IMG/VR virus record: IMGVR_UViG_3300037424_001177
Span: 64,001-128,000 of that record
Direction: 5' to 3' (one strand)
From: a virus
DNA length: 64,000 bases
Both the position numbers and the translations under genes were made by a program. The notes under the pieces were generated by a model. The model was not told where the DNA came from and ran no database searches. It saw only the letters and a program-made list of their open reading frames with translations. Positions 6,407-59,216 of the stretch are shown piece after piece. Each line of letters opens with the position of its first letter. Position 1 is the first letter of the stretch.

Positions 6407-7207
6407 GTGTCACAGGCTTTCACAACACAGCGTGCGGTTTCGGAGACTCCTACAGGGGACCAGCCTAGTCGCGGACTTTCGTTACCTGCCGACATCCCTG
6501 GTCAGTCAACGCATGCGAAGCCTGTTGATGACACTCGTCGTCGGCCTAATCGTGATGAGCCCATTTGGAGAATCACGAACCCTACTGACAAGACCAAGGA
6601 GCACTCTCGTGTAGATGTCCGGGACGTCGGTGGTGAGACGAGCTACTTTGGTCTCGGCACACCGAACCCTCCGACCAAAACACAGTATCCGTACCGAGAC
6701 GACACCGACAACACCTACAAGGCTGCGGCATTTGTTGTCGAGCTTTGGCGTTTGGAAGGAGCCCCGACACTGTTGTTGTCCGTGGATTCAAGCATTCGGA
6801 CATCCACAACTCTGGAACAGATCTTGGAAGGTTTGGATACGAAATTCAAAGAGCGATCACTTGGGTGCTCCGCTGCTTTGAAGCGAGTTGACCCTAGAAA
6901 CCTTCGTTGGATCTTTAGCGTGAATTGCGGCAACGGAGCCAAAGCTGTCAAGGTTCGAGCCGTTCGTCGGGGATCGGCGGTACACTTCACGAAACTTGAC
7001 TTAGAGCTTTCGTGCTCTTGCCCTGCATGGCAGTGGCTGGGTCCAGAGTTTCATGCTCGGCAAGAAGCTTTTCAGCTCGGCAAGGCTCGTGGAACCGCCT
7101 CTCCACCCAACATACGAGACCCTGAGCGTGACAATCGTGTCTGTAAGCATGTAGCCGCGGTGTTAGCTACTACCAGACAGTGGGTTGTTCCACGTCGGGA
7201 AAAATAA
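6407..7207 (+). CDS. SWIM-type zinc finger protein
   Basis: CSCPAW...CKHVAAV (CxC...CxH). Confidence 0.7.
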   Translation: MSQAFTTQRAVSETPTGDQPSRGLSLPADIPGQSTHAKPVDDTRRRPNRDEPIWRITNPTDKTKEHSRVDVRDVGGETSYFGLGTPNPPTKTQYPYRDDTDNTYKAAAFVVELWRLEGAPTLLLSVDSSIRTSTTLEQILEGLDTKFKERSLGCSAALKRVDPRNLRWIFSVNCGNGAKAVKVRAVRRGSAVHFTKLDLELSCSCPAWQWLGPEFHARQEAFQLGKARGTASPPNIRDPERDNRVCKHVAAVLATTRQWVVPRREK

Positions 7208-7609
7208 ATGCCTGTTTACACATTTCAAGATCAGAACGGGGTTCAGGTGTCTCGTCGACTCTCGTTCGAGGAGTTCGACTCTGTCAAGTCTGGGGCTAGA
7301 CAAATGCTCGACGGTGAAAACCGGCCGCTCAAGTTGGTGCTGACGGCATCCTTTCGCACTGTGTTGAAAGATGGAGTCTCCGGTGGCTGGATGTCGAAGG
7401 CTGGCAAGGAGAATAAATATCGAGCCCAGCATCGGAACGTTCTCGCTAAGCGTGAGAGAGATCACGTGGAAAAGCCACGTCTAGTACCCAACCTAGCAGG
7501 GGCTGAAGCTGCAACTTGGGCCGATGCCCAAGAGCAGGTTCGGGCAACAAAGGGCAACGAAGCCGCTTCTACTTATGACGCACTTGTTGCAAAGGAAGCG
7601 ACCTCATGA
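7208..7609 (+). CDS. FmdB-like small protein lacking the zinc-ribbon cysteines
   Basis: MPVYTF N-terminus typical of FmdB family; no CxxC pairs. Confidence 0.5.
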   Translation: MPVYTFQDQNGVQVSRRLSFEEFDSVKSGARQMLDGENRPLKLVLTASFRTVLKDGVSGGWMSKAGKENKYRAQHRNVLAKRERDHVEKPRLVPNLAGAEAATWADAQEQVRATKGNEAASTYDALVAKEATS

Positions 7610-11640: not shown

Positions 11641-11681
11641 GTTTCAATTTATCCGCCATCTCACAATGAGGCGACGGAAAA
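11641..11681 (-). CRISPR. Solitary CRISPR-repeat-like unit, copy 1
   Basis: Minus strand TTTT-CCGTCGCCTCA-TTG-TGAGATGGCGG-ATAA-ATTGAAAC: hairpin plus canonical 8-nt handle. Homologous to 45180 and 59123. Confidence 0.6.
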
Positions 11682-11684
11682 CTC

Positions 11685-11713
11685 AACTTAGCAGAAGGAA
11701 TCTTGCGTCACAA
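11685..11713 (-). promoter_or_regulatory. Sigma70-type promoter driving repeat unit 1
   Basis: Minus strand TTGTGA (11713-11708), 17 bp, TGc, TAAGTT (11690-11685); same spacing in all three copies. Confidence 0.6.
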
Positions 11714-11751
11714 GCAACTCCTTCTTTCTGTGTCTGAAGAAGAGGAAACCT

Positions 11752-34729: not shown

Positions 34730-37357
34730 ATGGCAATCAAGGACTATGGGCCGGCCACGTCCGGGTATTTGGACCCTGCGGATCGTGCTTGGGAAACAGT
34801 CGTAATTCAGGCTGGAAAACCGATCCTTGATAAGGAACTCAACCTTGTACAAGATGTTGAGCAAGAAGCGGAGCTAGTCACCCGTCGCCGCTCCTTTCCT
34901 TCAGGGTGGATGTCGGACCAGTTTCTCAATGTAACTCAATCCGGTCTCTTGAACGCGCTCGTTACGACAGCCAACACGATCCAGCTCGCGACACAGCGTG
35001 CGCACGTCAATGGCTGGCTTGTCCACGTTGCCGATACAGGCGATGCGACAGAGTTGAACGTTTTGAGTCTTGGTGCAGGACCTGTCGGTGCTGGGACCAA
35101 ACGGACTGACCTCATCATTCTGGAGGTCTGGCGTCGTCTTATTCCTGCTGCTCCTACAGCGACCGGGAAGAGTCCAGCAGCGAGGATCTGGCGCTACGGA
35201 AACGTCAAGATCCCGTCGGCTAGCGACTTGGCGCTGAACTTCGCTGACGACATCTTGGACGGAGCTGTAGGGTCTGAAACCACGAAGCGCGTTCAGATCC
35301 AGTATCGACTCCGCGTCATCAGTGCAGTCGATCTGTTCACCTTTCCTAACGGTATCGACGATCCGACTGTCGTGGCTAACACTGTGCCGGCCACGGCTGC
35401 GGCTCCTGACGGAACGGCTACGATCTACACGTATACGAATCAGTCTTCGCTGGGCGACCCTGGTCTTTGGCGAACCGGCAATGGAGACCCAACCAACACA
35501 CTAGGCACGGTCGACGGTTACATGTACGCGTTGCCTTTGTGCGCTGTGTTTCGACGCAACACGACGGCTTTTGCAAGAAACACAAACCACAACGGCGGTG
35601 TAGCGTTTCCTGGTCCTTCGGACCGTCCGGACAGTTTGTTCAGCGACAACATCGTTGCCAGGGACATTCTCGACTTGCGGTTTGGTACGTCGCCAACTGG
35701 TTGGGATCTGCAAGAGGTAGCGCAACGTAACTTGCACCTCTTGCTCGACAACCAAATCCAAACTGAGATTGGTGCAACGTTGTTGGGTGGGGGTCTTCAC
35801 GGGCACACTGTCATGTGGGCCGATGAAATCGGAGTGTCGAACGCGAACGGCGGTGACGGAACGACGACGGGTGACACCCCGGGCGCAGAATTCATTGGCG
35901 AGTTTGACGCCGTACGCCGAACATTTTCGGACCGCACGATCTACGAAACGATCGTTTTGAGGTTTACGCCGGCAGACGGCTCGGGCGGTGGCCCTAGCTG
36001 GGCGGACGGAGACACCATCACTATCTCGCCGTCTGCGCTGCCCATTTGGCCATACACAGCATTCAACTGGACAGCTTTTGCCCCATCCACGATTTCGTTC
36101 GTAGACATCGTCCGTGTTGCGTACCTTGGTGAATCATTGGGACAGAATTCCGTCAATGTTACGACGGACACAACGTCGCCTCGTTGGAGCATTGAGGGCC
36201 TCGGTAGTGTTCCACAGGGCGCTCTGACGTTTCGGATTCACACAACGATCGGTGGGGCATCACCCATCTACATTTCGGTTCTCATCGCGTATCCGTCCGG
36301 AGCCGGCCTTTTTCGTACACCAACAGCTATTTTTGCAAACAATGCTGTTCTTCCAACTTTGCAAGGTGTGTTCATCAACAACCCTGCACAACTTCCAGCT
36401 GGATCTCCGATTCTTTACAGTGCTCTCCAGATCCCGACTTTCAACACACCGAACCGTGAAGTGTCGTTGTCCTATACGACTGTTTCGCATTCTAGGACGT
36501 TCTTCTCGACTTCAACCACGACAACGATCGCCCTGCCTGAGCGTGCAATCACAGGCACGGTTTCCATCTCACAAGCTCCGGGCGGTCCTTACGGTGGTTC
36601 CATCACGGTCTCGAGTGATGGGTACCTTCTGACATTGAGCCCTGCGGTTGGCGGGGGTGGCGTCACTGTCACCGTCACCTACCAGTCGATCCGTCCATTG
36701 CCGCAGAATGACGAGCAGCTGACCGTCTACTACGAGGCGCGTTTGCCGCAAACAGTACGCGAAGCTCTGCTCGGTACGAGTTTGAGTTTGATCCCTCGAC
36801 TGGTCACACAAGATGTCTACGCGTTGACTGCGGGGAGTGGTAGTGATGGCCAAGGTTACCCGTTTCCGTCTGCGTACGTCCAATCAGGGGGCGTTTACCC
36901 GACATCCGGCGGCACGTTTACAGGGGATCACGAACTTGACGGCGCTCTGCGTGTATCCGTAACCACGTTGTTTGCGGATACGGGTTTTCTACGTCTCCCT
37001 GCACACGTGCCCGTTGTTCCCTTGCCTGACGACTTTGTGTTCAGCCGCGTCCCAGGGGATGTCGACGCAGAAGGACGTACCTTTTTCAAGGCTTTGACTA
37101 GCGCGTATAAGCCGTTGGGCGTCGCGCAGCCACTGAGCGACCCGAAGCGTCACAAGAACTTTTTGCCAATCCTTTGTGAGTTGTCCGTCGACACTCCGTT
37201 TGGGTTCAAGGGCGAACTTGTGCTGCTCTTGCTTACGAGATGGGCTTCTTTCGATGACGAAAACACGATCGCTTTCATGTCGAGTCTTGTATCGAACCGT
37301 TCGAGCGCCAGCGTGTACAAGCTCAAGGGACAACTGCTAGGCAATCGTAGGAGCTAG
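34730..37357 (+). CDS. Large baseplate/tail protein (paralog of 39997..44052)
   Basis: Shared Q.GKP.LD.E.N, VNGWL, D...LEVW, RYGNV, ETT.RVQ.QYR.RV, GLWR.G.G, LG.VDGY.YA.P...VFRRN, RPD.LF.D.I...DILDLR. Confidence 0.75.
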   Translation: MAIKDYGPATSGYLDPADRAWETVVIQAGKPILDKELNLVQDVEQEAELVTRRRSFPSGWMSDQFLNVTQSGLLNALVTTANTIQLATQRAHVNGWLVHVADTGDATELNVLSLGAGPVGAGTKRTDLIILEVWRRLIPAAPTATGKSPAARIWRYGNVKIPSASDLALNFADDILDGAVGSETTKRVQIQYRLRVISAVDLFTFPNGIDDPTVVANTVPATAAAPDGTATIYTYTNQSSLGDPGLWRTGNGDPTNTLGTVDGYMYALPLCAVFRRNTTAFARNTNHNGGVAFPGPSDRPDSLFSDNIVARDILDLRFGTSPTGWDLQEVAQRNLHLLLDNQIQTEIGATLLGGGLHGHTVMWADEIGVSNANGGDGTTTGDTPGAEFIGEFDAVRRTFSDRTIYETIVLRFTPADGSGGGPSWADGDTITISPSALPIWPYTAFNWTAFAPSTISFVDIVRVAYLGESLGQNSVNVTTDTTSPRWSIEGLGSVPQGALTFRIHTTIGGASPIYISVLIAYPSGAGLFRTPTAIFANNAVLPTLQGVFINNPAQLPAGSPILYSALQIPTFNTPNREVSLSYTTVSHSRTFFSTSTTTTIALPERAITGTVSISQAPGGPYGGSITVSSDGYLLTLSPAVGGGGVTVTVTYQSIRPLPQNDEQLTVYYEARLPQTVREALLGTSLSLIPRLVTQDVYALTAGSGSDGQGYPFPSAYVQSGGVYPTSGGTFTGDHELDGALRVSVTTLFADTGFLRLPAHVPVVPLPDDFVFSRVPGDVDAEGRTFFKALTSAYKPLGVAQPLSDPKRHKNFLPILCELSVDTPFGFKGELVLLLLTRWASFDDENTIAFMSSLVSNRSSASVYKLKGQLLGNRRS

Positions 37358-37359
37358 AG

Positions 37360-39996: not shown

Positions 39997-42900
39997 GTGA
40001 CTGATTACCTTGGACCTGGAGTTTCGAGAGTCCTCTCTGCAAAGCAGAGTGGCTTCAATACTGTGATTTGGCAGTCCGGAAAACCTCCGCTTGATGCGGA
40101 ATACAATTTGATGCAGTCGATTTCAACGGAGGGTGAGAGAAATCTTGCGCTTCGAGCGGCGCCTAGCGGCTTTTTGGGAGACGCCGCAAACCCAATCGAC
40201 TCGTTCGTGACGAACAGGATCTGGTCCAATTGGTTCAAGTTTGGTCCACAGTTTGCCGGTGAGAAGCAAGCGATCATGTGGTCCAATGTCAACGGTTGGC
40301 TGATACCAGTGACAGGCACCTTGACAGGCACGCCTCCTGGGTCGCCCAATGACGCGGATACGTGGAACAGAATCACCCTTCCACCGCCACCTGCGAACAC
40401 AGGGGACGCAAGGATCGACTTCGTGTTTCTGGAGGTTTGGCAGGCTCGCGTACCACCGAACCCTTCGACGCTCAACAAACCGGGTTCGTCAGCGCTCTAC
40501 CGCTACGGCAATGTGGAAGGCGGATATACCTTTCTAGCTGACGACTTGCAGGACCCTACGATCGGATTTGAAACCACGCAACGGGTCCAGTTGCAGTACC
40601 GGATTCGTGTTGTCTCCAACGTCGGTCTTGCGAGCTACCCTGACGGGTTTGATCCTGCAACCGTCAAAGGGCAGGGGGCGAGTGCGACGGCGACTAGCTT
40701 CGTCTTCACGAATATGCGGATCGAGCTTGGGGATGTTGGCCTCTGGCGTGCAGGTGATGGAACACAGAGCACGCTAGGCTCGGTCGACGGCTACACCTAC
40801 GCGGTTCCTATCGCAGTTGTCTTTCGTCGAAATCGTGTTTCGTGGACGGGGGACCCTGGACAGAATCTGAACGGTGCCTTCGATCGCAATCCGACTGCTG
40901 TCGATCGGACAGGTTACAAGACGTTTTCTACAATCCCGTCGCTGGCGAGTGCGTTGACGAGTAGCGCCCTGACGCTGACTTTGGCGACAGTGGTCAACAT
41001 ACCGCTTCCGTTGACGCCAGCGACTCCTGTAGCCATTCAAATCGGTGACGAGATTCTGACCTACTCGTCCATTACAGGGACGACAATGACTCTCGCAGCC
41101 CGAGGACAGTTTGGGTCTTTGGCTGAGGCCCACGTATCAGGGTCGATAGTCACAGTGCTTTCAGGCCGACCTGATGGACTGTTTGCGGATCAAATCATCA
41201 AGGACGATATCCTGGATTTGCGACACTTGACTGGGCCATCGTTGGACTACGAGGCACTGTTGCGAGGAAACCTGGACCGTCTCCTGCGAGGTCGCCTCAG
41301 GGCAACGTGGAAGCGTACAGGTGGAGGTCCACAAGGTTCGTTCGTATTCTACCAAGACAAGATTTCGGCCTCTCCAGGAGCACTTGGAGTCACGAAGTTA
41401 GACGCACCTGACGGGATTCGACAAGTTTGGGGTGATCCCGTGCTTTTGCAGGCCGTTGTGATCCCTATCAATACACCTAGCACCACTACAGGTTCGGTTT
41501 CAATAGGCGGCACATTAGGCGCCCCATTTAGCAGTGTTGTATTGAATCATCCAGCCCCGGCCGCAGGCTTCCAAGTTGGGGACATAATCACGGTTCCTAA
41601 AAGCTTGTTCATAGGCTCACTGCCTGGATCAGACGTTGACCAAATCACGCTTGTTGCGGTTCAATCGTACGTCAAGTTACGGTTCCTTGGCGAATCCGCC
41701 GATTTGTCGCTAGCGCAATACAGTGTTGCCAACAACGGGTCTGGCGACCTGCTCATTACTTTCACAGGGTCATTTGTCGTACGCACTGTTGGGGCATTCA
41801 TCACGATGCATGTGTTGTACGGTGCCGGACGCGGGCTTTCACGTCGACCTGACGCGATACATAGCCTTGCGTATTTGTCAGGCCATCCAGATATCCTGTT
41901 ACAAATTCAAGGTCTCCCTGCCGACAATCAAAGCTTGCGTACTACGTGGCTTGCGCAGTGGAGTCGGTACCGCAACGCCATGTTCAATGGAGGCCTGCCT
42001 TCGACCTGCGAATCGTACGCCGATCCGGGGAGCAAGACTGTTGTGTTGACTCCCTTTCGACGGATTCCGTACACAGCGGGTTCTGGTGGAACCCCGGCAA
42101 ACTCTACTTTCAAAACGGCCCAAAAAACAGCTGGAGCGACTCTTGGTGCTATGCCCGCTAACACGCCTGCGGGAGGCGTGAAATGGGTAGCCACAGATCC
42201 TCTTGCTTTGTTTTCGAATTATCTTGATGTGTCCGCTGGCGGAAACATGGTTGTTGTCGTCCCTCGACGACTGCTCCCCGGTTGGGGTGAAGTGAGAGTC
42301 CCCATCTTACCAGTTGATTCAGGATCTTTCGCTCAAGGAATTAACTTCTGTATCGAAGCGAAAAAAGGATCTGCCCCGCTACCAGCTGTCGTCGCGAATT
42401 ACGTACCGCAGACATCCGGTAGTGGTTCGGCGAGCTATCAAATATTTTCGACGACGGACAACTTCACTACGTTCACGTCCGCTGTGTACAACACGTCATT
42501 TATAGGCGTAGGAAACAAGATGGCGGGGATGCGGTTTTTTACGGATGGCCGAGGTCTGGGACGTCAGGGATTAGAGTTACCACCTTTTTACGGTATTGCG
42601 CGGTTGTTCGCTGTGTATGAAGCGCAGGACTACGGCACCAATAACAGTGCGTTTGATCCTACAACTCGTGAACCTTTGGTATCGGGAGGTGCAAAAAACC
42701 TCTTGCGTCAAAATTTCTCTGGTCCTACATTTTGGATTGAATCAGATGTTGACGGAGATCCAACGTTCATTTTGAACGCTGATGTGATCGACATTACGAA
42801 GAGTCCAAATCCTATTGCGTCGTTCAGTGCCGCAGACTATGTGATCGAGGCCTCAATCTTTGGGTGTGATCGTGGGTTTTTTGACTTCAACCAGGATGCA

Positions 42901-44052
42901 CGCATCGTACTTAATCGTGGATGGATCCCCACTGATTTAAGCGCACAAGGTGCAGGAAAACATATTGTCAATCCTGTGTTCATTCTTCCTGGTGCGCCTC
43001 AAGTTGGAGACGAGATCGCGATCAACTACAGCCGGACTCCGTACCAGGGAGATGTTTGGGGCAGCCAAAGCACCCAATCGGATCTTGGGTACAAGCCGGG
43101 AACACTCACGACAGCGATCCGCTACCAGCTGTTGAACACCGAGTTGACTTACTCGAACCTCACACGACCAAATCAAAAGGTTCTCGAGGTCCTGGCTAGT
43201 GTCAAATTCGTAACCACTCTCGGCACGGGACGGCTTTCAGGCGACGTCCCAGCCAACGACGAAGACGTTCGTGTGCCAGGATACGAGCCGTGGCTGATCC
43301 CGGCGACTGCCGTTGTTCCACGTGCAACGCCAACCCCTGAGGCCCTGTCTACGTCTGAGAAAGGTCTCCCGATCGGAAACGATTACCTGGGGATGACCGA
43401 GCGACTCCCGTTGGGAGCGCTCTTTCGGGACAAGGACTTCCGGGGGAACTACATCGGAGACATTGGGCCGTTTTCGGTCGATTACAGTGCGCCTGGGATC
43501 CAAGCAGCTTCAGTTGCACCGGTCCAGAATCTCGAATACGAAACCGTACCCGTCCACACAGGTTCGGTGACTGGCGGGAGTGCTGGGGAGACCGTGGTCC
43601 ATGTGGACGGTAACGACGGCAACTACTCGGTCCTGACCAACTACCGCACCAATCGAGGCGGTAGCGCGTTTTCCGTGTTCGGGCACTCCGGTGGGGACGT
43701 GGGGGCGATCACCCCTCCCAGCGCCAGCCACACGACCTCTGGAGGGGTTTTGGCGGGTCTTGCTATGTTGGTTCGGAATGTGCCGACGAACGTTGGAGCC
43801 AACGAGGTGTCGGCGGGTGATGAGCTGTTGTTGCTCATTGCGACGACAGCACGACCTATGGACAGCGGGGCGGACAACATCAATGCCGTCCAGGTGAGTA
43901 CGTCAGGTACGGGTGAGGGTTACGGGGCCGCCGATTTGTACCGGCTGACAGGTCACCCAATCACCAACAATCCGGCACGTTCAACGATTGACCCGTCGAC
44001 AGTCGTACTGGCACGCGCCTCCGACTTGTTGTTGACTAACGAAGTGCTCTAG
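39997..44052 (+). CDS. Large baseplate/tail protein, 1351 aa
   Basis: N-terminal ~430 aa paralogous to 34730..37357. Confidence 0.75.
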   Translation: MTDYLGPGVSRVLSAKQSGFNTVIWQSGKPPLDAEYNLMQSISTEGERNLALRAAPSGFLGDAANPIDSFVTNRIWSNWFKFGPQFAGEKQAIMWSNVNGWLIPVTGTLTGTPPGSPNDADTWNRITLPPPPANTGDARIDFVFLEVWQARVPPNPSTLNKPGSSALYRYGNVEGGYTFLADDLQDPTIGFETTQRVQLQYRIRVVSNVGLASYPDGFDPATVKGQGASATATSFVFTNMRIELGDVGLWRAGDGTQSTLGSVDGYTYAVPIAVVFRRNRVSWTGDPGQNLNGAFDRNPTAVDRTGYKTFSTIPSLASALTSSALTLTLATVVNIPLPLTPATPVAIQIGDEILTYSSITGTTMTLAARGQFGSLAEAHVSGSIVTVLSGRPDGLFADQIIKDDILDLRHLTGPSLDYEALLRGNLDRLLRGRLRATWKRTGGGPQGSFVFYQDKISASPGALGVTKLDAPDGIRQVWGDPVLLQAVVIPINTPSTTTGSVSIGGTLGAPFSSVVLNHPAPAAGFQVGDIITVPKSLFIGSLPGSDVDQITLVAVQSYVKLRFLGESADLSLAQYSVANNGSGDLLITFTGSFVVRTVGAFITMHVLYGAGRGLSRRPDAIHSLAYLSGHPDILLQIQGLPADNQSLRTTWLAQWSRYRNAMFNGGLPSTCESYADPGSKTVVLTPFRRIPYTAGSGGTPANSTFKTAQKTAGATLGAMPANTPAGGVKWVATDPLALFSNYLDVSAGGNMVVVVPRRLLPGWGEVRVPILPVDSGSFAQGINFCIEAKKGSAPLPAVVANYVPQTSGSGSASYQIFSTTDNFTTFTSAVYNTSFIGVGNKMAGMRFFTDGRGLGRQGLELPPFYGIARLFAVYEAQDYGTNNSAFDPTTREPLVSGGAKNLLRQNFSGPTFWIESDVDGDPTFILNADVIDITKSPNPIASFSAADYVIEASIFGCDRGFFDFNQDARIVLNRGWIPTDLSAQGAGKHIVNPVFILPGAPQVGDEIAINYSRTPYQGDVWGSQSTQSDLGYKPGTLTTAIRYQLLNTELTYSNLTRPNQKVLEVLASVKFVTTLGTGRLSGDVPANDEDVRVPGYEPWLIPATAVVPRATPTPEALSTSEKGLPIGNDYLGMTERLPLGALFRDKDFRGNYIGDIGPFSVDYSAPGIQAASVAPVQNLEYETVPVHTGSVTGGSAGETVVHVDGNDGNYSVLTNYRTNRGGSAFSVFGHSGGDVGAITPPSASHTTSGGVLAGLAMLVRNVPTNVGANEVSAGDELLLLIATTARPMDSGADNINAVQVSTSGTGEGYGAADLYRLTGHPITNNPARSTIDPSTVVLARASDLLLTNEVL

Positions 44053-44684
44053 AGGTCACTCCAGTCCTTCTGGGGTGATCGTTGGTCTTTCCTGGTGTTG
44101 CGCAAGAACTGTTGTTTGTACGAGCCCATGTAGCCGTCGGGTCGCTTGTGCTTTTGGTACTTCTTGTGCAAGAAGTTGATCATCGGAATTGTCTCTTCGT
44201 CGACGGATGACCAGATGTCGAACCAAATCGTACTCCATTTTCGCTTGTACGGTTTCCATTCAGTAATGTCTGCGTGAACGAAGCCGAGTTTCCGTTGGGC
44301 GTCGGGCAACTTTTTGAGAACGTCTCCGACAACACGAAGGACTTCAGCATCGGATTCGACGACGGTGACCGTGCGCACTGTTGGTTTTTGTAAGATCGCG
44401 ACCGTAGTCATGCCGATTCCGAGTCCTGCGATGAGCACGTCGCCAAAGGCCTCCGACACAACTTGACGGTTTGCTAGTTGCTCAGCAGGTGAATCTTGTG
44501 CGAGCAACTTGGGCAGCAAGATCGCTGTACGATAGAGGCGGCAACAACATGCCTTAGGGAATTTGACTTCCGTTCCTTTACCGTCAGGCGTGTCGATGTA
44601 GTGGGTTTCCTCGACCTCCTCGTGCTTGATTTCTATGTGTCCACTGATGGTGGGGCGGAAAACGGAAATCATGGGAACGAACAT
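44049..44684 (-). CDS. Spermidine-synthase-like SAM-dependent methyltransferase
   Basis: DVLIAGLGIG, VTVVE, HADI, IWFDIW. Confidence 0.75.
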   Translation of the reverse strand: MFVPMISVFRPTISGHIEIKHEEVEETHYIDTPDGKGTEVKFPKACCCRLYRTAILLPKLLAQDSPAEQLANRQVVSEAFGDVLIAGLGIGMTTVAILQKPTVRTVTVVESDAEVLRVVGDVLKKLPDAQRKLGFVHADITEWKPYKRKWSTIWFDIWSSVDEETIPMINFLHKKYQKHKRPDGYMGSYKQQFLRNTRKDQRSPQKDWSDL

Positions 44685-44690
44685 TTTTGA

Positions 44691-45005
44691 TCAAACTCCG
44701 GTGAGTTCCTTGGCTACAGCTAACCAAGCGAGGCGTTCGTCGTCCAACACGAGGTATGGTTTGATTCCCACAGTGCGCCTGGCGATGATTTCCGGCTTTG
44801 TCAGATGCTTGCCTTGAAGGAACTCGTCGCTGACGCCTACGGTCGGGTGTGTGTCCGAAATGCTGAATGTCTTTTTGCATTCGAGGCACAGATGCTTCTT
44901 GTGTAGCCGCGTCAACCAGGGCCCTATGTCGAGGTGCCTTGCTTCACAAGATGGACAGAATATGGGGCAGGGATAGGGTGGAACGATGTCAGAAAGACCC
45001 GACAT
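44691..45005 (-). CDS. Small zinc-binding protein
   Basis: CPSC...H...HLCLEC. Start moved to ATG 45005 because the longer ORF runs through the repeat cluster. Confidence 0.6.
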   Translation of the reverse strand: MSGLSDIVPPYPCPIFCPSCEARHLDIGPWLTRLHKKHLCLECKKTFSISDTHPTVGVSDEFLQGKHLTKPEIIARRTVGIKPYLVLDDERLAWLAVAKELTGV

Positions 45006-45018
45006 GAAGTCTACCCAC

Positions 45019-45216
45019 GTTTCAATTTTTATTGGCCATTCGAAGGATGACGGATAAAGCTTAACCACTTTTAGCACCTGTTTTTTCAATTTATCCGCTG
45101 TCCTTGTCACCGGGGCCCGATAAAGCGTCTGAGGAGTCACCACGTCAGGACCGTCTATCCGATATTGGTACTCGTTCCAGTTTCAATTTATCCGCTGTCC
45201 TAAGACCAACGGAAAG
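45019..45216 (-). CRISPR. Degenerate mini-array: repeat (45180-45216), ~74-nt insert, partial repeat (45084-45104), ~31 nt, degenerate repeat (45019-45057)
   Basis: Minus strand CTTT-CCGTTGGTCTTAGGACAGCGG-ATAA-ATTGAAAC. 21-nt exact direct repeat at 45084-45104 and 45181-45201; third unit ends ATAAAAATTGAAAC. Confidence 0.6.
45106..45181 (-). repeat. Diverged copy of the 3' end of the adjacent lipoprotein gene (45280-45355)
   Basis: Ungapped alignment, 68/76 identical. Confidence 0.95.
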
Positions 45217-45219
45217 ACC

Positions 45220-45248
45220 AATTTAGCAGAGTGGTCTTTCCGTTGCAA
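45220..45248 (-). promoter_or_regulatory. Sigma70-type promoter with overlapping 14-bp inverted repeat
   Basis: Minus strand TTGCAA (45248-45243), 17 bp, TGc, TAAATT (45225-45220). Perfect IR CAACGGAAAGACCA (45207-45220) / TGGTCTTTCCGTTG (45232-45245). Confidence 0.65.
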
Positions 45249-45260
45249 GTGTTGAACACT

Positions 45261-47798
45261 CTAGAACGCCTGGTACGTAGTCACTGGGGCCCGATACAGC
45301 GTCTGAGGAGTCACCACGTCAGGACCGTCTACCTGATACGGGTATTGGTTCCAGTAGCCCCAGCTCAGCCAGTACACGTAGTCGTCGTCAGCGACATCGG
45401 CAATGACCGCGTAGGCTTGGTGCGAATACCCTGTCCAATAGCCGCTCGTGAAGTTTCTCGTGTCCAGGTATTGATAGTTTGTGTAGATCAGGTCGCCTTT
45501 GCTGAACTGGTACTCGCTACCGACCCCGAGGCTTCCTGTGGTTTGAAAATGCAACAGATCGGCTGTCGCGTCCTCGGGGTAGGCGCCGAAGATGAAGTAT
45601 TTGTTGTCGGAGGTCGCGATGATTTGGCCCGACTCCATTCTGATCAAGTCGACAGGCCAGTGCAGAGGTTGACCTGTAACAAGGAAACCATTTTCGTTGA
45701 TGTATGTGGCGGAGAACGCTAACGAGGTCTCGTTTTCGATGGTTGACGGTATCGGCGAGGGGCCCGTCGTCGAGTGCTTCAACAACCCTGCGACGTAGGA
45801 AGGTTGGACGTTCCAGTAGTAGATGAAGTCTTCGTCGACGACAATTTTTGGTGGTATCCACCAAGTACCTGTGATTGCGAAGACGACTTCTCCGTACGAC
45901 AGTGAATCAATTGGCGCACGGTAGAACGTCACGGTTCTGAACGGGTAGCCGATCGGATCGCAGCCATTGCCAACCCCGTAACACGGTCCTTCCTGGTCCT
46001 CGTTGTGCCAGTAAACGTGTGTCGAGTTCTTCGTGAGGCGCTGGACTAAGCGTCCACTATAGACTTGCGTGCAGTTGAGCGGATCTGGAATCGTTGTCGC
46101 GCAGCGTATGATTTCGGACGTATTGGCGCCGTTAGAGACTGATCCTTTGATGATGTACAGGTGTTGCCCAGCCGCTAATATGCCGCCGATGCCAGTGTTG
46201 ATGTCGAAACTCGTGATGAGTTCGGACGCGCTTCCGTCCTTGGGCATTTTTCGAACAATGGCTTGATTTGCGTCGTAGTCGTATTCGGAGGTGTAGAGGT
46301 TGTTCTCGTCTTGGGTCAGACCTTGCCATCCACTGCTCCCCCCACCTGGATGGACCGCAATCGGTTCGATCCCCGGGTACTCGCAGGTCCCGTTGAGGCA
46401 TTGGCCGCCGTTGCACGCGAGCCCACACACGCCGCAGTTCGTGTCGTCGTTCTGGATGTTTGTTTCACATCCGGGAGCGGCCGTGCAGTCAGCGAAACCT
46501 TGGATGCAGGTGAAGCCGCATCCTTCGACGGCGCCGACACAAATTGGATCAGCGTTCTCGGGTGTCGCCGTGCAAGCGTCGCCACACGACGTGCAGTTGG
46601 TCGAAGAGCCGAACGTGGTTTCACATCCTGGAGCAGCCGTACAGTCGGCGAAGCCAGTCACACAGGCGGTGCTACACACGCCAGCCCCTGAGCAGATTGG
46701 CGCCGTGTTCGGATCGACCGGACACGAGACGATCGAGCCCCATTCTCCCGTAGCGTCGCAAGTCTCAGTCGCAGAGCCACTGCAACGCATCGTCCCTGGC
46801 TCACAGTTGCCCGTACAGGCTCCGTTCAGGCAGGCGTAGGGGCAAGTTGTCGTTGGCGGCTGCCAAGCCCCCTGGGTGTCACAAGATTCGATTCCGAGCC
46901 CGGAGCAACGTAGGTCTCCTGGCTCACACGTCCCGGCACAGACGCCGTCACCGTCGCAAGCGAATTCACAGTCAGTGTCCGGGATCCATTCCCCGTTCGA
47001 GTCACAAACTTCGACGGTCGGCCCTCCGACACATCGCTTGGTTCCGGGGATGCATTCCCCGGTACAGGAGGCCGTGCCCGATTCCTCTTTGCACACGAAG
47101 TCACAAATGTTGGTCTGGACAAATAGACCTTGTCCGTCACACAAGGCAGTGATCAGGGTCATGGTCAGGTCGGGAACTTGTAGGCACGCGTTGGTCCCAG
47201 GCACACATACGCCTGTACATGCACCGTTTTCGCAGCCGAAGGGACATGATTCAGTAGACCATTGTCCGAAGGCGTCGCAGATCTCGTGTTCCCCTGTGTT
47301 GAGCGTACAGCGAGCGTCTTCGGGAACACACTCACCGATGCATCCGAATTCGTTGTCACAGGCGAACGGACACGTTTCGGTTGGGATCCATTCCGAGCCG
47401 TCTTGGCGACAGGATTCGAACGCGGAGCCGTTGCACTGGGTCGTGCTTGGTTCGCAAAATGTCGTCGCAGGTGAGCCAGCTGTTCCTGTTCCTCCGATGC
47501 CAGTCACTCCTGCGCTTCCGCCAGGGGAGCTGCCACCAGATCCACCAGAACCGCCTAGGTTATCGGCACCCGCGTCTGGCTCAGGTGTGGTGACGGGATC
47601 CGTTCCACTTTGAGAGCCTCCAGAACTTGCGTTTATAGCGGGCTCGAGTTCGGGCGGAATAGGGGCGGAACCCGGTATGCCGATTTGCTTCGGCCCGTAG
47701 AGGCTTTCTCCGCAACCTGCGACAGCGAGCAAGATCGCGAATAATGTGCCAAATCTGGACGGGCAGGTCTTCCGGTTACCTTTGAAGTCGTGTACCAT
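45261..47798 (-). CDS. Cys-rich repeat lipoprotein with C-terminal beta-propeller-like domain (myxobacterial style)
   Basis: Lipobox LAVAGC, GGSGG linker, repeated C.PG..RC...E.C...G.W...C.F.C..G.C.G units, GFADC...PGCET repeats, D...VYW propeller blades. Confidence 0.8.
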   Translation of the reverse strand: MVHDFKGNRKTCPSRFGTLFAILLAVAGCGESLYGPKQIGIPGSAPIPPELEPAINASSGGSQSGTDPVTTPEPDAGADNLGGSGGSGGSSPGGSAGVTGIGGTGTAGSPATTFCEPSTTQCNGSAFESCRQDGSEWIPTETCPFACDNEFGCIGECVPEDARCTLNTGEHEICDAFGQWSTESCPFGCENGACTGVCVPGTNACLQVPDLTMTLITALCDGQGLFVQTNICDFVCKEESGTASCTGECIPGTKRCVGGPTVEVCDSNGEWIPDTDCEFACDGDGVCAGTCEPGDLRCSGLGIESCDTQGAWQPPTTTCPYACLNGACTGNCEPGTMRCSGSATETCDATGEWGSIVSCPVDPNTAPICSGAGVCSTACVTGFADCTAAPGCETTFGSSTNCTSCGDACTATPENADPICVGAVEGCGFTCIQGFADCTAAPGCETNIQNDDTNCGVCGLACNGGQCLNGTCEYPGIEPIAVHPGGGSSGWQGLTQDENNLYTSEYDYDANQAIVRKMPKDGSASELITSFDINTGIGGILAAGQHLYIIKGSVSNGANTSEIIRCATTIPDPLNCTQVYSGRLVQRLTKNSTHVYWHNEDQEGPCYGVGNGCDPIGYPFRTVTFYRAPIDSLSYGEVVFAITGTWWIPPKIVVDEDFIYYWNVQPSYVAGLLKHSTTGPSPIPSTIENETSLAFSATYINENGFLVTGQPLHWPVDLIRMESGQIIATSDNKYFIFGAYPEDATADLLHFQTTGSLGVGSEYQFSKGDLIYTNYQYLDTRNFTSGYWTGYSHQAYAVIADVADDDYVYWLSWGYWNQYPYQVDGPDVVTPQTLYRAPVTTYQAF

Positions 47799-47854: not shown

Positions 47855-48607
47855 GTGAGCAGAAAAGTCACAATCGGAGCAGCGTCCAAGACGGTCCCGA
47901 TCAAACGAGGCGTGACGTTTGGTCACTGGACCGTAATGTCAGCACCGTATCGGCAAGGTCGCAAACCGTACGTCAAATGTCGTTGCGCTTGTGGCACACA
48001 ACGAGGTGTCCAAGTTGACAGTTTGTGTGCAGGTCGCAGCAAGGGCTGTGGTTGTCGTTTAAGTGGACGCGGGCGTCCCGCACGACACGGTTTCGCCTGT
48101 AAAGGGAACCCTCAAAATAACACGTATCAGTCTTGGGCGCACATGCGTTATTTTGTTGAGAAGCGAGGAGTTCGAGTAGCCCCTCGGTGGCAAGTGTTCG
48201 AAGAATTCCTGGCGGACATGGGACCTTGCCCGGTTGGCAAGATGCTAGGGCGCTTACATCCGAGCCGGGGGTATCACGTCAATAATTGTGTGTGGACTCA
48301 ACACGAACGATTCAACAATCGGAAGCGAACGACTTTTTGGGTGACGTGGAAAGGGCGATCGCAAAGTCTGGCGGATCTCGCACGACTTGAAAACGTGAAC
48401 TACGAAAAGTTGCGAGGTCGGCTGAGGAAGACATCGATTGAAGCCCTGCGAGAAATTGTTCAGCAGTTGAGAGCGGAAGGATCTACTTACGTTCCCTACA
48501 TCGACCGCCGTCCTGGACGTCGTCGCCCCAAATCATGGCGTCATGAAATTCGAGGGGACGAACGACGATCAATGCCTGTCGGTGTTCCAGTTTTGGATGT
48601 CGCGTAG
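47855..48607 (+). CDS. HNH/AP2-type homing endonuclease, probably degenerate
   Basis: FGHWTV...CRCACG...SKGCGC...TYQSW..M...W..FEEFLADMG..P...GY...NC.W. The usual (S/T)IDRID appears as MLGRLH. Confidence 0.75.
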   Translation: MSRKVTIGAASKTVPIKRGVTFGHWTVMSAPYRQGRKPYVKCRCACGTQRGVQVDSLCAGRSKGCGCRLSGRGRPARHGFACKGNPQNNTYQSWAHMRYFVEKRGVRVAPRWQVFEEFLADMGPCPVGKMLGRLHPSRGYHVNNCVWTQHERFNNRKRTTFWVTWKGRSQSLADLARLENVNYEKLRGRLRKTSIEALREIVQQLRAEGSTYVPYIDRRPGRRRPKSWRHEIRGDERRSMPVGVPVLDVA

Positions 48608-50706: not shown

Positions 50707-51057
50707 GTGAAGCCGATCGTGATCATTGAATCACCTTACGGTTCAGGCTCCGGACCAAATGGCCGGGCGACGCAAAAGGACCTTGCGCGCAACAAGGAAT
50801 ATTTGGAGCGTGCCATACGAGATTCACTTCTTCGTGGAGAAGCGCCGTTTGCTTCTCATCGGATGTATCCTGGAGCGCTAGATGACCACATACCCGAAGA
50901 ACGAAAGCTCGGAATAGAGGTCGGTTTGGTGTTCTACGAAGTCGCGGACATGGTAGCTGTCTACACGGATTACGGGATCACTGAAGGTATGAAGAAGGGG
51001 ATTGAGCACGCCAAGATCAATTACTTGGGGATTGAGTACAGAAACCTCAACGACTGA
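50707..51057 (+). CDS. Nucleoside 2-deoxyribosyltransferase-like protein (DUF4406-like)
   Basis: VIIESPY...RGEAPFASH...ER..GI...VY.D.GI.EGM..GI. Confidence 0.65.
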   Translation: MKPIVIIESPYGSGSGPNGRATQKDLARNKEYLERAIRDSLLRGEAPFASHRMYPGALDDHIPEERKLGIEVGLVFYEVADMVAVYTDYGITEGMKKGIEHAKINYLGIEYRNLND

Positions 51058-52838
51058 TGGAGGCCCCGACTAAATCGAACCCGTTGCTGGAGAAGCTGCG
51101 GGTTATCAGGTCTCGAAAAGACTTGAAGCCATTGCCGCCGACGCCTCTGTTGAAAACGGAGATTCGAGGACTCGACGGAGAGTTGACACCGCTTCAGATC
51201 CGGTACTACCAGATCCAAGCTATCCTCACCATGCTCGCGATGAAGCGCATGGTGCTTGGTGATGATACTGGGATCGGGAAGACGTTTGAAACTTTAGCGA
51301 CACTTTGTTATCTGTGGGGGAAGCACCCAAATACAAAAGTCGTGGTCGTCGCACCGAAGAGTGCGCTTCGCCAGTGGGCGAGTGAGATCGCCAAATTCAC
51401 ACAAGGTGTCAAGTCCTTCGTCGTCGCGGATCAAAAGATCAAAGACAAGCCACCGGCTGAAGCGCGCCGCCTAGTTTACGAGGAATGGCTTCGAACAGAC
51501 CAGTCTGTTCTCATCTTGAGTTACAAGACGCTGATCATCGACTGGAACTACGACGGCTATCGACCGTTGTTGCCTGGTACGGCACGCCCCGATCCCAAGC
51601 AACCTGTGATACCAGGAATGCTCGATCGACTTTTCAAGTCTTCCGGTCCGAACCTTGTCCTCATTTACGACGAGTGCACAGCATTCAAGGAGACCCGCAC
51701 GAAGACGTGGGAGATTTGCCGATACGCTGCGCAGTCAGCTGATCGTGTGTACGGCCTCACCGCAACCTTGCTCAAAAATCGCCTCTTCGAGGGGTACGGT
51801 ATTTACAAGGTCATCGTGCCTACTTTATTCCGCACGAAGACCGGTTTCATGAAGGACTTCTGTTACGTCGAGTTGTTGGAGGTGCAGCGTGGTAGAAAGA
51901 TCCCAATCATCAAGGGTTACAAGAATCTAGACCAGTTTCGACGGACGATCGAACCTGTCTACCTCGGTCGGGCTAAGCATACGGTCACGACTGACCTTCC
52001 TGTCCTCACTACTCGGGAGTTTTTGATCGAGCTCAATCGCGCTGAACGGATCAAGTACCAGGAGGCGTTGCGAGGCTTGATTGAACTTGGCGACGGCGAT
52101 TTGAAGTCCTTCAGTGAGACCAAGGCTTTGACCAGCCTCATTTACTGTCAACAGGTTGTGAACTCCCTCGCACTGCTGAAGTTTCAAGAAGGCGACGACG
52201 TAGGAGATTTCAGCGATGTTTTGAGCGGGGACACCGCTAAGGTTGGCAGTTTGAGCAGCAAGGAAGCCGCTCTGATCGATCTTTTGACGGATGAGTTGGA
52301 TGGGGCCAAGGTCATCGTCTACACGCGTTTCGCGAGCCACACCACGCGGTTGTGTGAGATCTTAGCAAAGCACAAAATCAGGGCCGTAAAAATCACAGGG
52401 GCTGAAAACACACGACAGCGTGATGAGGCGCAAGCTGCGTTTCAAGACCTGAAGTCCGACGTGCGTGTTGTCGTGATCACGAACGCGGGTTCTGAAGCCA
52501 TCAACCTGCAAGCTGGGGCAGCTCTCATTTACTTCGACATGCCGTGGTCGTGGGGGGACTTCGTTCAGATCCTAGGACGCATGGTCCGGATCGGATCCCC
52601 TCACCGCGGTGTCTTAGTGTACTTGTTCTTGGCTGAGCTGGACGGTGAGGGCAAAGCCAGGAAGACGATCGACCATCACGTACTGACCTTGTTGCGAAAG
52701 AAGAAGCGCTTGATCGAACAAGTTCTGTCGGCAGACAAAGTGGGAGCGATCGAACTGGAGAAGGACAAAGATGGCAGTACCCGCGACTTATTCCGTCTGA
52801 TGAGAGAGTCACAGAAGGTCGTGAGGGGAGAAGTCTAG
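51057..52838 (+). CDS. SNF2-family helicase
   Basis: LGDDTGIGKT, VVAPKS..RQW..E, YDEC, LTAT, AGSEAINLQ, DMPWS...Q..GR..RIG. Confidence 0.92.
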   Translation: MEAPTKSNPLLEKLRVIRSRKDLKPLPPTPLLKTEIRGLDGELTPLQIRYYQIQAILTMLAMKRMVLGDDTGIGKTFETLATLCYLWGKHPNTKVVVVAPKSALRQWASEIAKFTQGVKSFVVADQKIKDKPPAEARRLVYEEWLRTDQSVLILSYKTLIIDWNYDGYRPLLPGTARPDPKQPVIPGMLDRLFKSSGPNLVLIYDECTAFKETRTKTWEICRYAAQSADRVYGLTATLLKNRLFEGYGIYKVIVPTLFRTKTGFMKDFCYVELLEVQRGRKIPIIKGYKNLDQFRRTIEPVYLGRAKHTVTTDLPVLTTREFLIELNRAERIKYQEALRGLIELGDGDLKSFSETKALTSLIYCQQVVNSLALLKFQEGDDVGDFSDVLSGDTAKVGSLSSKEAALIDLLTDELDGAKVIVYTRFASHTTRLCEILAKHKIRAVKITGAENTRQRDEAQAAFQDLKSDVRVVVITNAGSEAINLQAGAALIYFDMPWSWGDFVQILGRMVRIGSPHRGVLVYLFLAELDGEGKARKTIDHHVLTLLRKKKRLIEQVLSADKVGAIELEKDKDGSTRDLFRLMRESQKVVRGEV

Positions 52839-59122: not shown

Positions 59123-59161
59123 GTTTCAATTTATCCCCCATCTAACGAAGACGACGGAAAA
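59123..59161 (-). CRISPR. Solitary CRISPR-repeat-like unit, copy 3
   Basis: Minus strand TTTT-CCGTCGTCT-TCGTT-AGATGGGGG-ATAA-ATTGAAAC. Cassette flanked by the 11-bp direct repeat TGACGCCATGG. Confidence 0.6.
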
Positions 59162-59164
59162 CTC

Positions 59165-59193
59165 AACTTAGCAGAAGTAATCTTTCGTCACAA
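59165..59193 (-). promoter_or_regulatory. Sigma70-type promoter driving repeat unit 3
   Basis: TTGTGA (59193-59188), 17 bp, TGc, TAAGTT (59170-59165). 59152-59203 is 50/52 identical to 11672-11723. Confidence 0.6.
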
Positions 59194-59216
59194 GCAACTC
59201 CTTACTTTCTGACGCC

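Follow-up and report, generated by a model that had tools for sequence, protein, structure and literature searches.

A short intergenic locus in a 64,000-nt stretch of huge-phage DNA (the window, positions 64,001 to 128,000 of the 159-kb IMG/VR virus record IMGVR_UViG_3300037424_001177, here called G000) looks like a minimal CRISPR array next to a lipoprotein gene. It consists of a cassette of ~80–90 nt, present at several places in this phage and in a relative, followed by a 75-nt insert that copies the 3' end of the lipoprotein gene in an ancestral state. This insert is probably a recombination scar, a fragment of a foreign or ancestral allele lodged in a PeSL-like, lineage-specific mobile regulatory cassette, and not part of a CRISPR array. 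An earlier note on this DNA had described the insert as a spacer whose guide matches a competing relative's allele, while the resident allele escapes.

The evidence comes from comparison of G000, which has a completeness estimate of 33%, with one relative (G001), a contig of 301,550 bp bounded by direct terminal repeats. The two are inverted but collinear, with 80–96% nucleotide identity and a median synonymous divergence (dS) of 0.27. Coordinates are those of the window unless a genome is named.

Structure of the locus

The locus was read on the minus strand throughout, and runs from the lipoprotein gene through cassette B, the insert, a repeat stub and an older cassette unit to a 104-aa open reading frame (ORF). 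The lipoprotein gene (45261–47798, minus strand) is an 845-aa ORF with a lipobox signal, Cys-rich repeats and an orphan C-terminal domain, and its end reads …WNQYPYQVDGPDVV…TYQAF-stop. Cassette B starts 5 nt past the stop codon. Its upstream half (45217–45260, minus strand) contains a small palindrome, a -35-like TTGCAA (45248–45243) and, after a 17-nt spacer, a TGc and a -10-like TAAATT (45225–45220); a perfect 14-bp hairpin (45207–45245) encloses the -10-like box. The second half is an intact 37-nt hairpin unit that ends in ATTGAAAC (R1, 45180–45216, minus strand), which is the "CRISPR-like repeat". R1 is present as a single copy in the window even when up to 3 mismatches are allowed, and shuffled sequences gave zero matches to it, so the pattern is not due to chance. 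The stem of R1 is conserved, and its G-U pairs are compatible with minus-strand RNA only.

The insert (X, 45105–45179, minus strand) begins right after the last base of R1. It is a 75-nt fragment, in sense orientation, of an ancestral or G001-like allele of the gene 3' end, and its junctions show a 2-nt microhomology (AC) with R1 and a 1-nt filler before the next unit. That unit is a stub (R2p, 45084–45104, minus strand), an exact 21-nt duplicate of the 3' part of R1 (45181–45201) that cannot form the hairpin. A TTG within the stub (45089–45087) is in frame with the downstream ORF, and would give a 132-aa version of this 104-aa, zinc-ribbon-like protein (44691–45005, minus strand, ATG at 45005), which is conserved in G001. 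Between the stub and the ORF lie a 24-nt stretch (45060–45083, minus strand) with a -10-like box (45076–45067), assigned to an older cassette by the cassette alignment, and a degenerate older cassette unit of 41 nt with indels (R3, 45019–45059, minus strand).

The match between 45106–45181 and 45280–45355 at 68 of 76 positions, reported in the earlier note, was confirmed in the sequence. The coordinates given there for the repeat and the partial repeat were also right, but the locus is not an array of equal repeats: it holds one intact unit, one 21-nt stub and one decayed unit. Compared with an array of equal repeats and spacers of about 26–45 nt, the units here measure 37, 21 and 41 nt and the intervals 75 and 24 nt.

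Homology between G000 and G001 breaks 5 nt past the lipoprotein stop codon and resumes precisely at the last base of R3. At this site G001 has no unit, and instead has a 281-nt intergenic region, in which no cassette remnant was detected above shuffled controls. The region (L008 6620–6845), between the lipoprotein gene and the 104-aa ORF, holds a small ORF of ~66 codons with two hydrophobic, transmembrane-type helices. This ORF is lost in G000, where the cassette pile-up stands in its place.

A dispersed family of cassettes

Cassettes related to cassette B occur at seven or more sites, only one of which is common to both phages. In G000 they are located at 7124 (7124–7215), 75641 (window 11641), 109180 (this locus), 123123 (window 59123) and 142992 (142992–143069), and in G001 at 174250, 268496 and 271828. 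Each cassette consists of a stem-loop over a promoter-like TGc plus TAnnTT box, a structured 5' hairpin and a fixed tail. The two stem-loops have folding z-scores of -2 to -4. Two compensatory pairs occur in the conserved hairpin, whose G-U pairs fit minus-strand RNA only. The tail, GGA(G/T)AAATTGAAA(C/T), resembles a ribosome-binding site with a TTG start, and ends in ATTGAAA[C/T]. The -10-like boxes carry the TG of an extended -10 element, and the conserved TGc plus TAnnTT box suggests a putative promoter. At two sites, G000 142992 and the 21-nt stub of this locus, the TTG of the tail is in frame with the downstream ORF; at the G000 142992 site, the native start in G001 resembles the cassette tail. 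A degenerate eighth copy lies on the opposite strand, immediately before an ATG.

At the other sites, a cassette is found in one of these two ~90%-identical phages and not in the other. Cassette C (59123–59209, minus strand) is a clean 87-nt insertion after the stop codon of the polymerase gene, flanked by a 10-nt exact target duplication, and the G001 site is empty. The cassette at G000 142992 is likewise a clean insertion relative to an empty site, with an exact 18-nt target duplication. Cassette A (11641–11730, minus strand) is present in G000 only, while the cassettes found only in G001 correspond to empty sites in G000 (for example window 37341–37358). The whole-genome alignment blocks of the two phages break at the cassettes. 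The family was absent from the other IMG/VR contigs, and the "guide" adjacent to the shared cassette, cassette E, matched no other viral contig.

The insert carries the ancestral state

The insert translates as WNEYQYRI..., and the resident 3' end of the lipoprotein gene (X', 45280–45355, minus strand) as …WNQYPYQVDG…, while the gene end in G001, …WNEYQYQIDG…, is of the insert type. The insert differs from the resident gene at positions 7, 9, 14, 15, 20, 22, 57 and 69, and at position 75 at the junction. It differs from G001 at positions 20, 27, 45, 63 and 69, and at one position at the junction; the first 19 nt are identical, a single mismatch falls in the first 22, and the overall match is 69 of 75. 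Over the 75 nt, the pairwise differences are thus 6 between insert and G001, 9 between resident and G001, and 9 between insert and resident. The mismatch positions, the translations and the TAC preceding the gene copy had all been given correctly in the earlier note.

Since the insert and G001 agree at positions 7, 9, 14, 15, 22 and 57, the resident gene is the derived one. Unique changes number 2 in the insert, 6 in the resident gene end and 3 in G001. Six of the eight internal differences are therefore derived in the constrained coding copy, against an expected share of ~29% (p = 0.009, or 0.06 when two changes in the same codon count once); an equal-rate test of 6 against 2 is not significant (p = 0.145). 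The earlier note had named neutral decay of a local tandem duplication as the process that would speak against its reading; the changes in the coding copy exceed simple neutral decay (p about 0.01 to 0.06).

The earlier note had also proposed a search for a relative carrying the insert-type allele, and the homologous lipoprotein gene of G001 has it, with a match to the insert of 69/75 overall and 21/22 on the seed side. This positive result does not discriminate between a guide and a scar, because the insert simply keeps the ancestral state.

Origin of the insert

We favor the explanation that the insert is a scar of recombination. Because the fragment is nearer to G001 than to the resident copy, and because the derived changes lie in the constrained copy, a foreign or older allele is the preferred source. 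The starting state would have been a lipoprotein gene with its stop codon, followed by one intact cassette feeding the downstream gene, with an older, decayed cassette beyond. A piece of 75–76 nt from a G001-like, ancestral-type lipoprotein allele would then have been spliced in behind the last base of the cassette, by recombination or copy-choice with a co-infecting relative or from an older allele. Splicing would have left a second copy of the final 21 nt of the cassette on the far side of the fragment, on a scale like that of the 10- and 18-nt duplications elsewhere, and this duplication would keep the tail and its in-frame TTG ahead of the downstream gene. The insert itself would have no guide function, and would only lengthen the 5' leader of the downstream operon. 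The fallback offered in the earlier note, a displaced old gene end left after a homing or recombination event, comes close to this explanation.

Several observations weigh against a scar in a regulatory cassette. All seven clear copies lie on one strand (p = 0.016), and cassettes A, C and D point antisense into plus-strand genes at their 3' ends, one of these being the DNA polymerase gene, so that a module of promoter and Shine–Dalgarno sequence has no gene to serve there. A scan with the sigma-70 consensus calls no cassette promoter, the hexamers matching at 7–8 of 12 positions (8/12 in cassette B), below the threshold. The polarity and timing of the changes rest on 75 nt, three sequences and one relative, and the insert has changed less than junk DNA should, with 6 of the 8 differences in the constrained coding copy. 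R1 has the architecture of a repeat processed by Cas6/Cas5, with a stable hairpin and then a tail whose last 8 nt are the canonical ATTGAAAC, and the first base of the foreign-allele fragment occupies the very position at which a spacer would start. The likeness of the cassette unit to a Cas-processed repeat remains a resemblance.

The repeat-like architecture and the starting point of the fragment also count in favor of a single-guide unit, in which a promoter-driven solitary repeat would be used by a host Cas complex to make a guide from the 75-nt insert or its first ~35 nt. The guide would hit the ancestral allele in relatives, the resident gene would escape through changes in the first 22 nt, and cleavage followed by repair would spread the cassette. 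The position behind a promoter-like box is one often taken by viral solitary repeat units. The seed-side match to the insert is 21/22 in G001 and 16/22 in the resident gene, derived changes are in excess in the coding copy, two synonymous ones inside changed codons being among them, and the DNA flanking cassettes C and D agrees with the empty alleles for 22 and 43 nt. However, Cas6, RAMP, DevR/Cas7 and Cas1 were absent from G000 and from the 301-kb G001, which is bounded by terminal repeats; other Cas families were not tested individually. The neighbors of the locus gave no match to defence models. No array with the R1 unit was present in 185,579 GTDB species genomes, where 27 single matches were found, about the chance number, or in IMG/VR, G000 or G001. 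The unit did not match the Rfam CRISPR repeat models (CRISPR-DR) at E ≤ 10, and Rfam covers only some repeat families. The insert is about twice the usual spacer length, and the downstream "repeat" has no hairpin. There is no shared protospacer-adjacent motif, its position being taken by CGA, TGC and TAC in the three clean targets. At the site of cassette A, the first 5 guide bases mismatch the empty allele, and the G001 allele of the lipoprotein gene is still mismatched to the insert at positions 20, 27, 45, 63 and 69. Because the guide would have the same sense as the lipoprotein mRNA, RNA-targeting systems are excluded at this site. The clustering of mismatches beside the unit, taken alone, gives p = 0.01. 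It loses force because, within the last 1100 nt of the lipoprotein gene, 5 or more mismatches to G001 are found in 33% of 16-nt windows, and because this gene has the highest nonsynonymous divergence (dN) in the neighborhood. Such clusters are ordinary for this gene. With no cas gene among those tested, no array, no shared motif and a 75-nt spacer, the guide mechanism put forward in the earlier note is unsupported, and we regard a single-guide unit as unlikely. A broader form of the idea appears quite improbable: the cassettes would be cas-less guide units that use adjacent DNA as guide, attack phages that lack the unit or carry the ancestral allele, and are copied during repair, which would amount to an RNA-guided gene drive among huge phages. 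The insert would then be the retained ancestral target, and the recoding of the first 22 nt of the resident copy would be self-protection.

Two other explanations dispense with a guide. A purely local origin, possible though not likely, would involve a 174-nt tandem duplication of the gene end plus cassette, followed by a 77–78-nt deletion in the second copy; the functional gene copy, encoding a surface protein, would have diverged fast, and the dead copy would have stayed near the ancestor by chance. The copies are spaced by exactly 174 nt, the length of gene end plus cassette, equal rates are not rejected, zero differences in the 21-nt duplicate are unsurprising (p = 0.09), and substitution clusters are common in this gene. 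Against this origin, two rare events are required, and the insert has 6 differences from G001 but 9 from the gene end 174 nt away that would be its parent. Under neutrality, a dead copy is expected to collect more changes than the constrained coding copy, and here it has fewer (p = 0.009 to 0.06). An exact 21-nt duplicate points to a recent event, in contrast to the 10% difference between the insert and the resident gene end. Between the two, a foreign or ancestral fragment is the likelier source, by a modest degree. The cassettes may alternatively be RNA anti-CRISPR decoys of the Racr type that titrate host Cas proteins, with the insert as irrelevant cargo; this explanation is compatible with a scar, and we consider it doubtful as an account of the cassettes. 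The units are solitary, multi-copy and intergenic, lie behind a promoter-like box with no cas genes nearby, and have a hairpin conserved with compensatory changes. They show no similarity to curated CRISPR repeat families, no host array was found among the 185,579 species genomes, the hairpin sequence varies between copies, unlike mimics of one host repeat, and the tail reads as a Shine–Dalgarno sequence plus start, in frame at two sites.

A pair of variable and template repeats of a diversity-generating retroelement was rejected, as 3 of 8 mismatches fall at A in either direction and neither phage has an RVT_1 domain. A swap of the gene-end module from a more distant lineage was unsupported: the last 125 codons have a dS of 0.36–0.52, like the N-terminal part of the lipoprotein and inside the genome range.

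If the scar explanation is true, the locus is a clear natural record of small regulatory cassettes that move within and reshuffle huge-phage genomes. Cassettes would be gained and lost between 90%-identical phages, leave short target duplications and be able to trap pieces of a competitor's or an ancestor's allele, and modular shuffling of the PeSL type would extend beyond T4-type phages. If the guide explanation is true instead, the cassettes would be mobile units that carry guides but no cas genes and drive their own spread in phage populations, a novel role for CRISPR-type RNAs. Under the scar explanation, the locus is also a warning that elements made of a hairpin with a tail ending in ATTGAAAC can imitate CRISPR repeats in sequence-only scans.

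Comparison with known elements

The closest counterparts are the PeSLs (promoter-early stem-loops) of T4-type phages. These mobile regulatory cassettes are short, recur between genes and consist of a promoter joined to a stem-loop (Arbiol et al. 2010, PMC2839356; PMC4122927). The PeSL stem-loop includes G-T pairs and can extend over the -35 or -10 box, and the elements span the interval from the upstream stop codon to the downstream Shine–Dalgarno sequence and start (PMC2839356; PMC4122927). They are concentrated at the boundaries of indels and replacements between close phages, including around the polymerase gene (PMC2839356; PMC4122927). The cassettes described here also join a promoter-like box to a stable stem-loop, with cassette B starting 5 nt after a stop codon and the tail TTG in frame at two sites, and they too lie at the edges of indels or replacements by which close phages differ, one of them beside the DNA polymerase gene. 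Unlike PeSLs, their promoter-like box falls below the sigma-70 consensus threshold, they carry a second conserved 5' hairpin with a fixed tail, and their insertions carry exact 10–21-nt target duplications instead of resulting from homologous PeSL–PeSL exchange alone. Several copies are antisense to their neighbors, and the phage itself is huge, uncultured and not shown to be T4-type.

Viral solitary repeat units and RNA anti-CRISPRs are lone units located in intergenic regions downstream of a promoter, with no cas genes nearby (Faure et al. 2019; Camara-Wilpert et al. 2023, PMC10651486). The unit at this locus is also lone, repeat-like and intergenic, directly follows a predicted promoter and has no cas genes. 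Under the SRUFinder rule, by which a full and a partial unit within 100 bp make a "mini-array", the locus would qualify. To count as a solitary repeat unit, however, a sequence must resemble a known CRISPR repeat, in most cases the host's, and no such match was found here; multi-copy mobility with target duplications, as seen here, is not in their description. Mini-CRISPR arrays carried by viruses in interviral conflict are reported with full host-type repeats, spacers of normal length and hosts with known Cas systems (Medvedeva et al. 2019, PMC6858448). The locus shares the repeat–spacer–repeat appearance and a "spacer" closer to the gene of a near relative than to the carrier's own copy, and differs in its 75-nt spacer, in a second repeat reduced to a 21-nt stub and in having no known Cas partner.

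A further comparison is with the omega-RNA of TnpB in IS200/IS605 elements. The scaffold of this RNA ends at the element boundary, and the adjacent target DNA serves as the guide. A cassette with its scaffold ending at the boundary would, like guide-equals-flank homing by TnpB, favor retention or spread of the element. The omega-RNA scaffold is much longer than the cassette, the cassette makes target duplications, and TnpB is found in G000 only. A link to TnpB was rejected, because the only TnpB element is G000-specific and has an unrelated right end, while the cassettes are present in both phages. This element, outside the window at G000:C1:37746-38953 (L092 616–1770), encodes a 384-aa TnpB with a Cas12f-like TNB domain (E = 5e-24). 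It is 1.2 kb long and inserted at a GAAAT-repeat gene junction, the G001 site is empty, and the nearest other TnpB is 59% identical.

Relatives and neighboring genes

No relative of G000 other than G001 was found by exact 32-mer search and protein-guided scans of IMG/VR, or among GenBank phages and by a back-translated pattern search. A metagenome scan gave a distant Cys-repeat match only, and searches of 5.8 billion and 1.84 billion proteins revealed no additional relative. Exact-protein look-ups identified a 5.6-kb Logan contig (SRR12684511) that has the methyltransferase located after the 104-aa ORF in minus-strand order (44049–44684), and that ends before the cassettes.

The lipoprotein had no match in Pfam, PHROG or PADLOC, and the G001 protein is its only homolog among 1.84 billion representatives; its C-terminal domain is an orphan. 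Codons 481–720 (roughly 45640–46358) have a dS of about 1.0, compared with 0.4 in the remainder of the gene, and may be a swapped or fast-evolving module. An HNH endonuclease gene (47855–48607, phrog_374, E = 4e-24) is divergent from the start of the lipoprotein gene; both phages have it, and an indel lies at its 5' end. On the other side, a 1351-aa ORF (39997–44052) is convergent with the methyltransferase gene. It is among the most diverged genes (dS 0.75, dN 0.085), and had no match in Pfam, PHROG or PADLOC.

A 593-aa ORF at 51057–52838 is near-identical in G000 and G001, with a dS of 0.017 against the genome median of 0.27. This indicates a very recent exchange between the two lineages, and thus that the lineages recombine.

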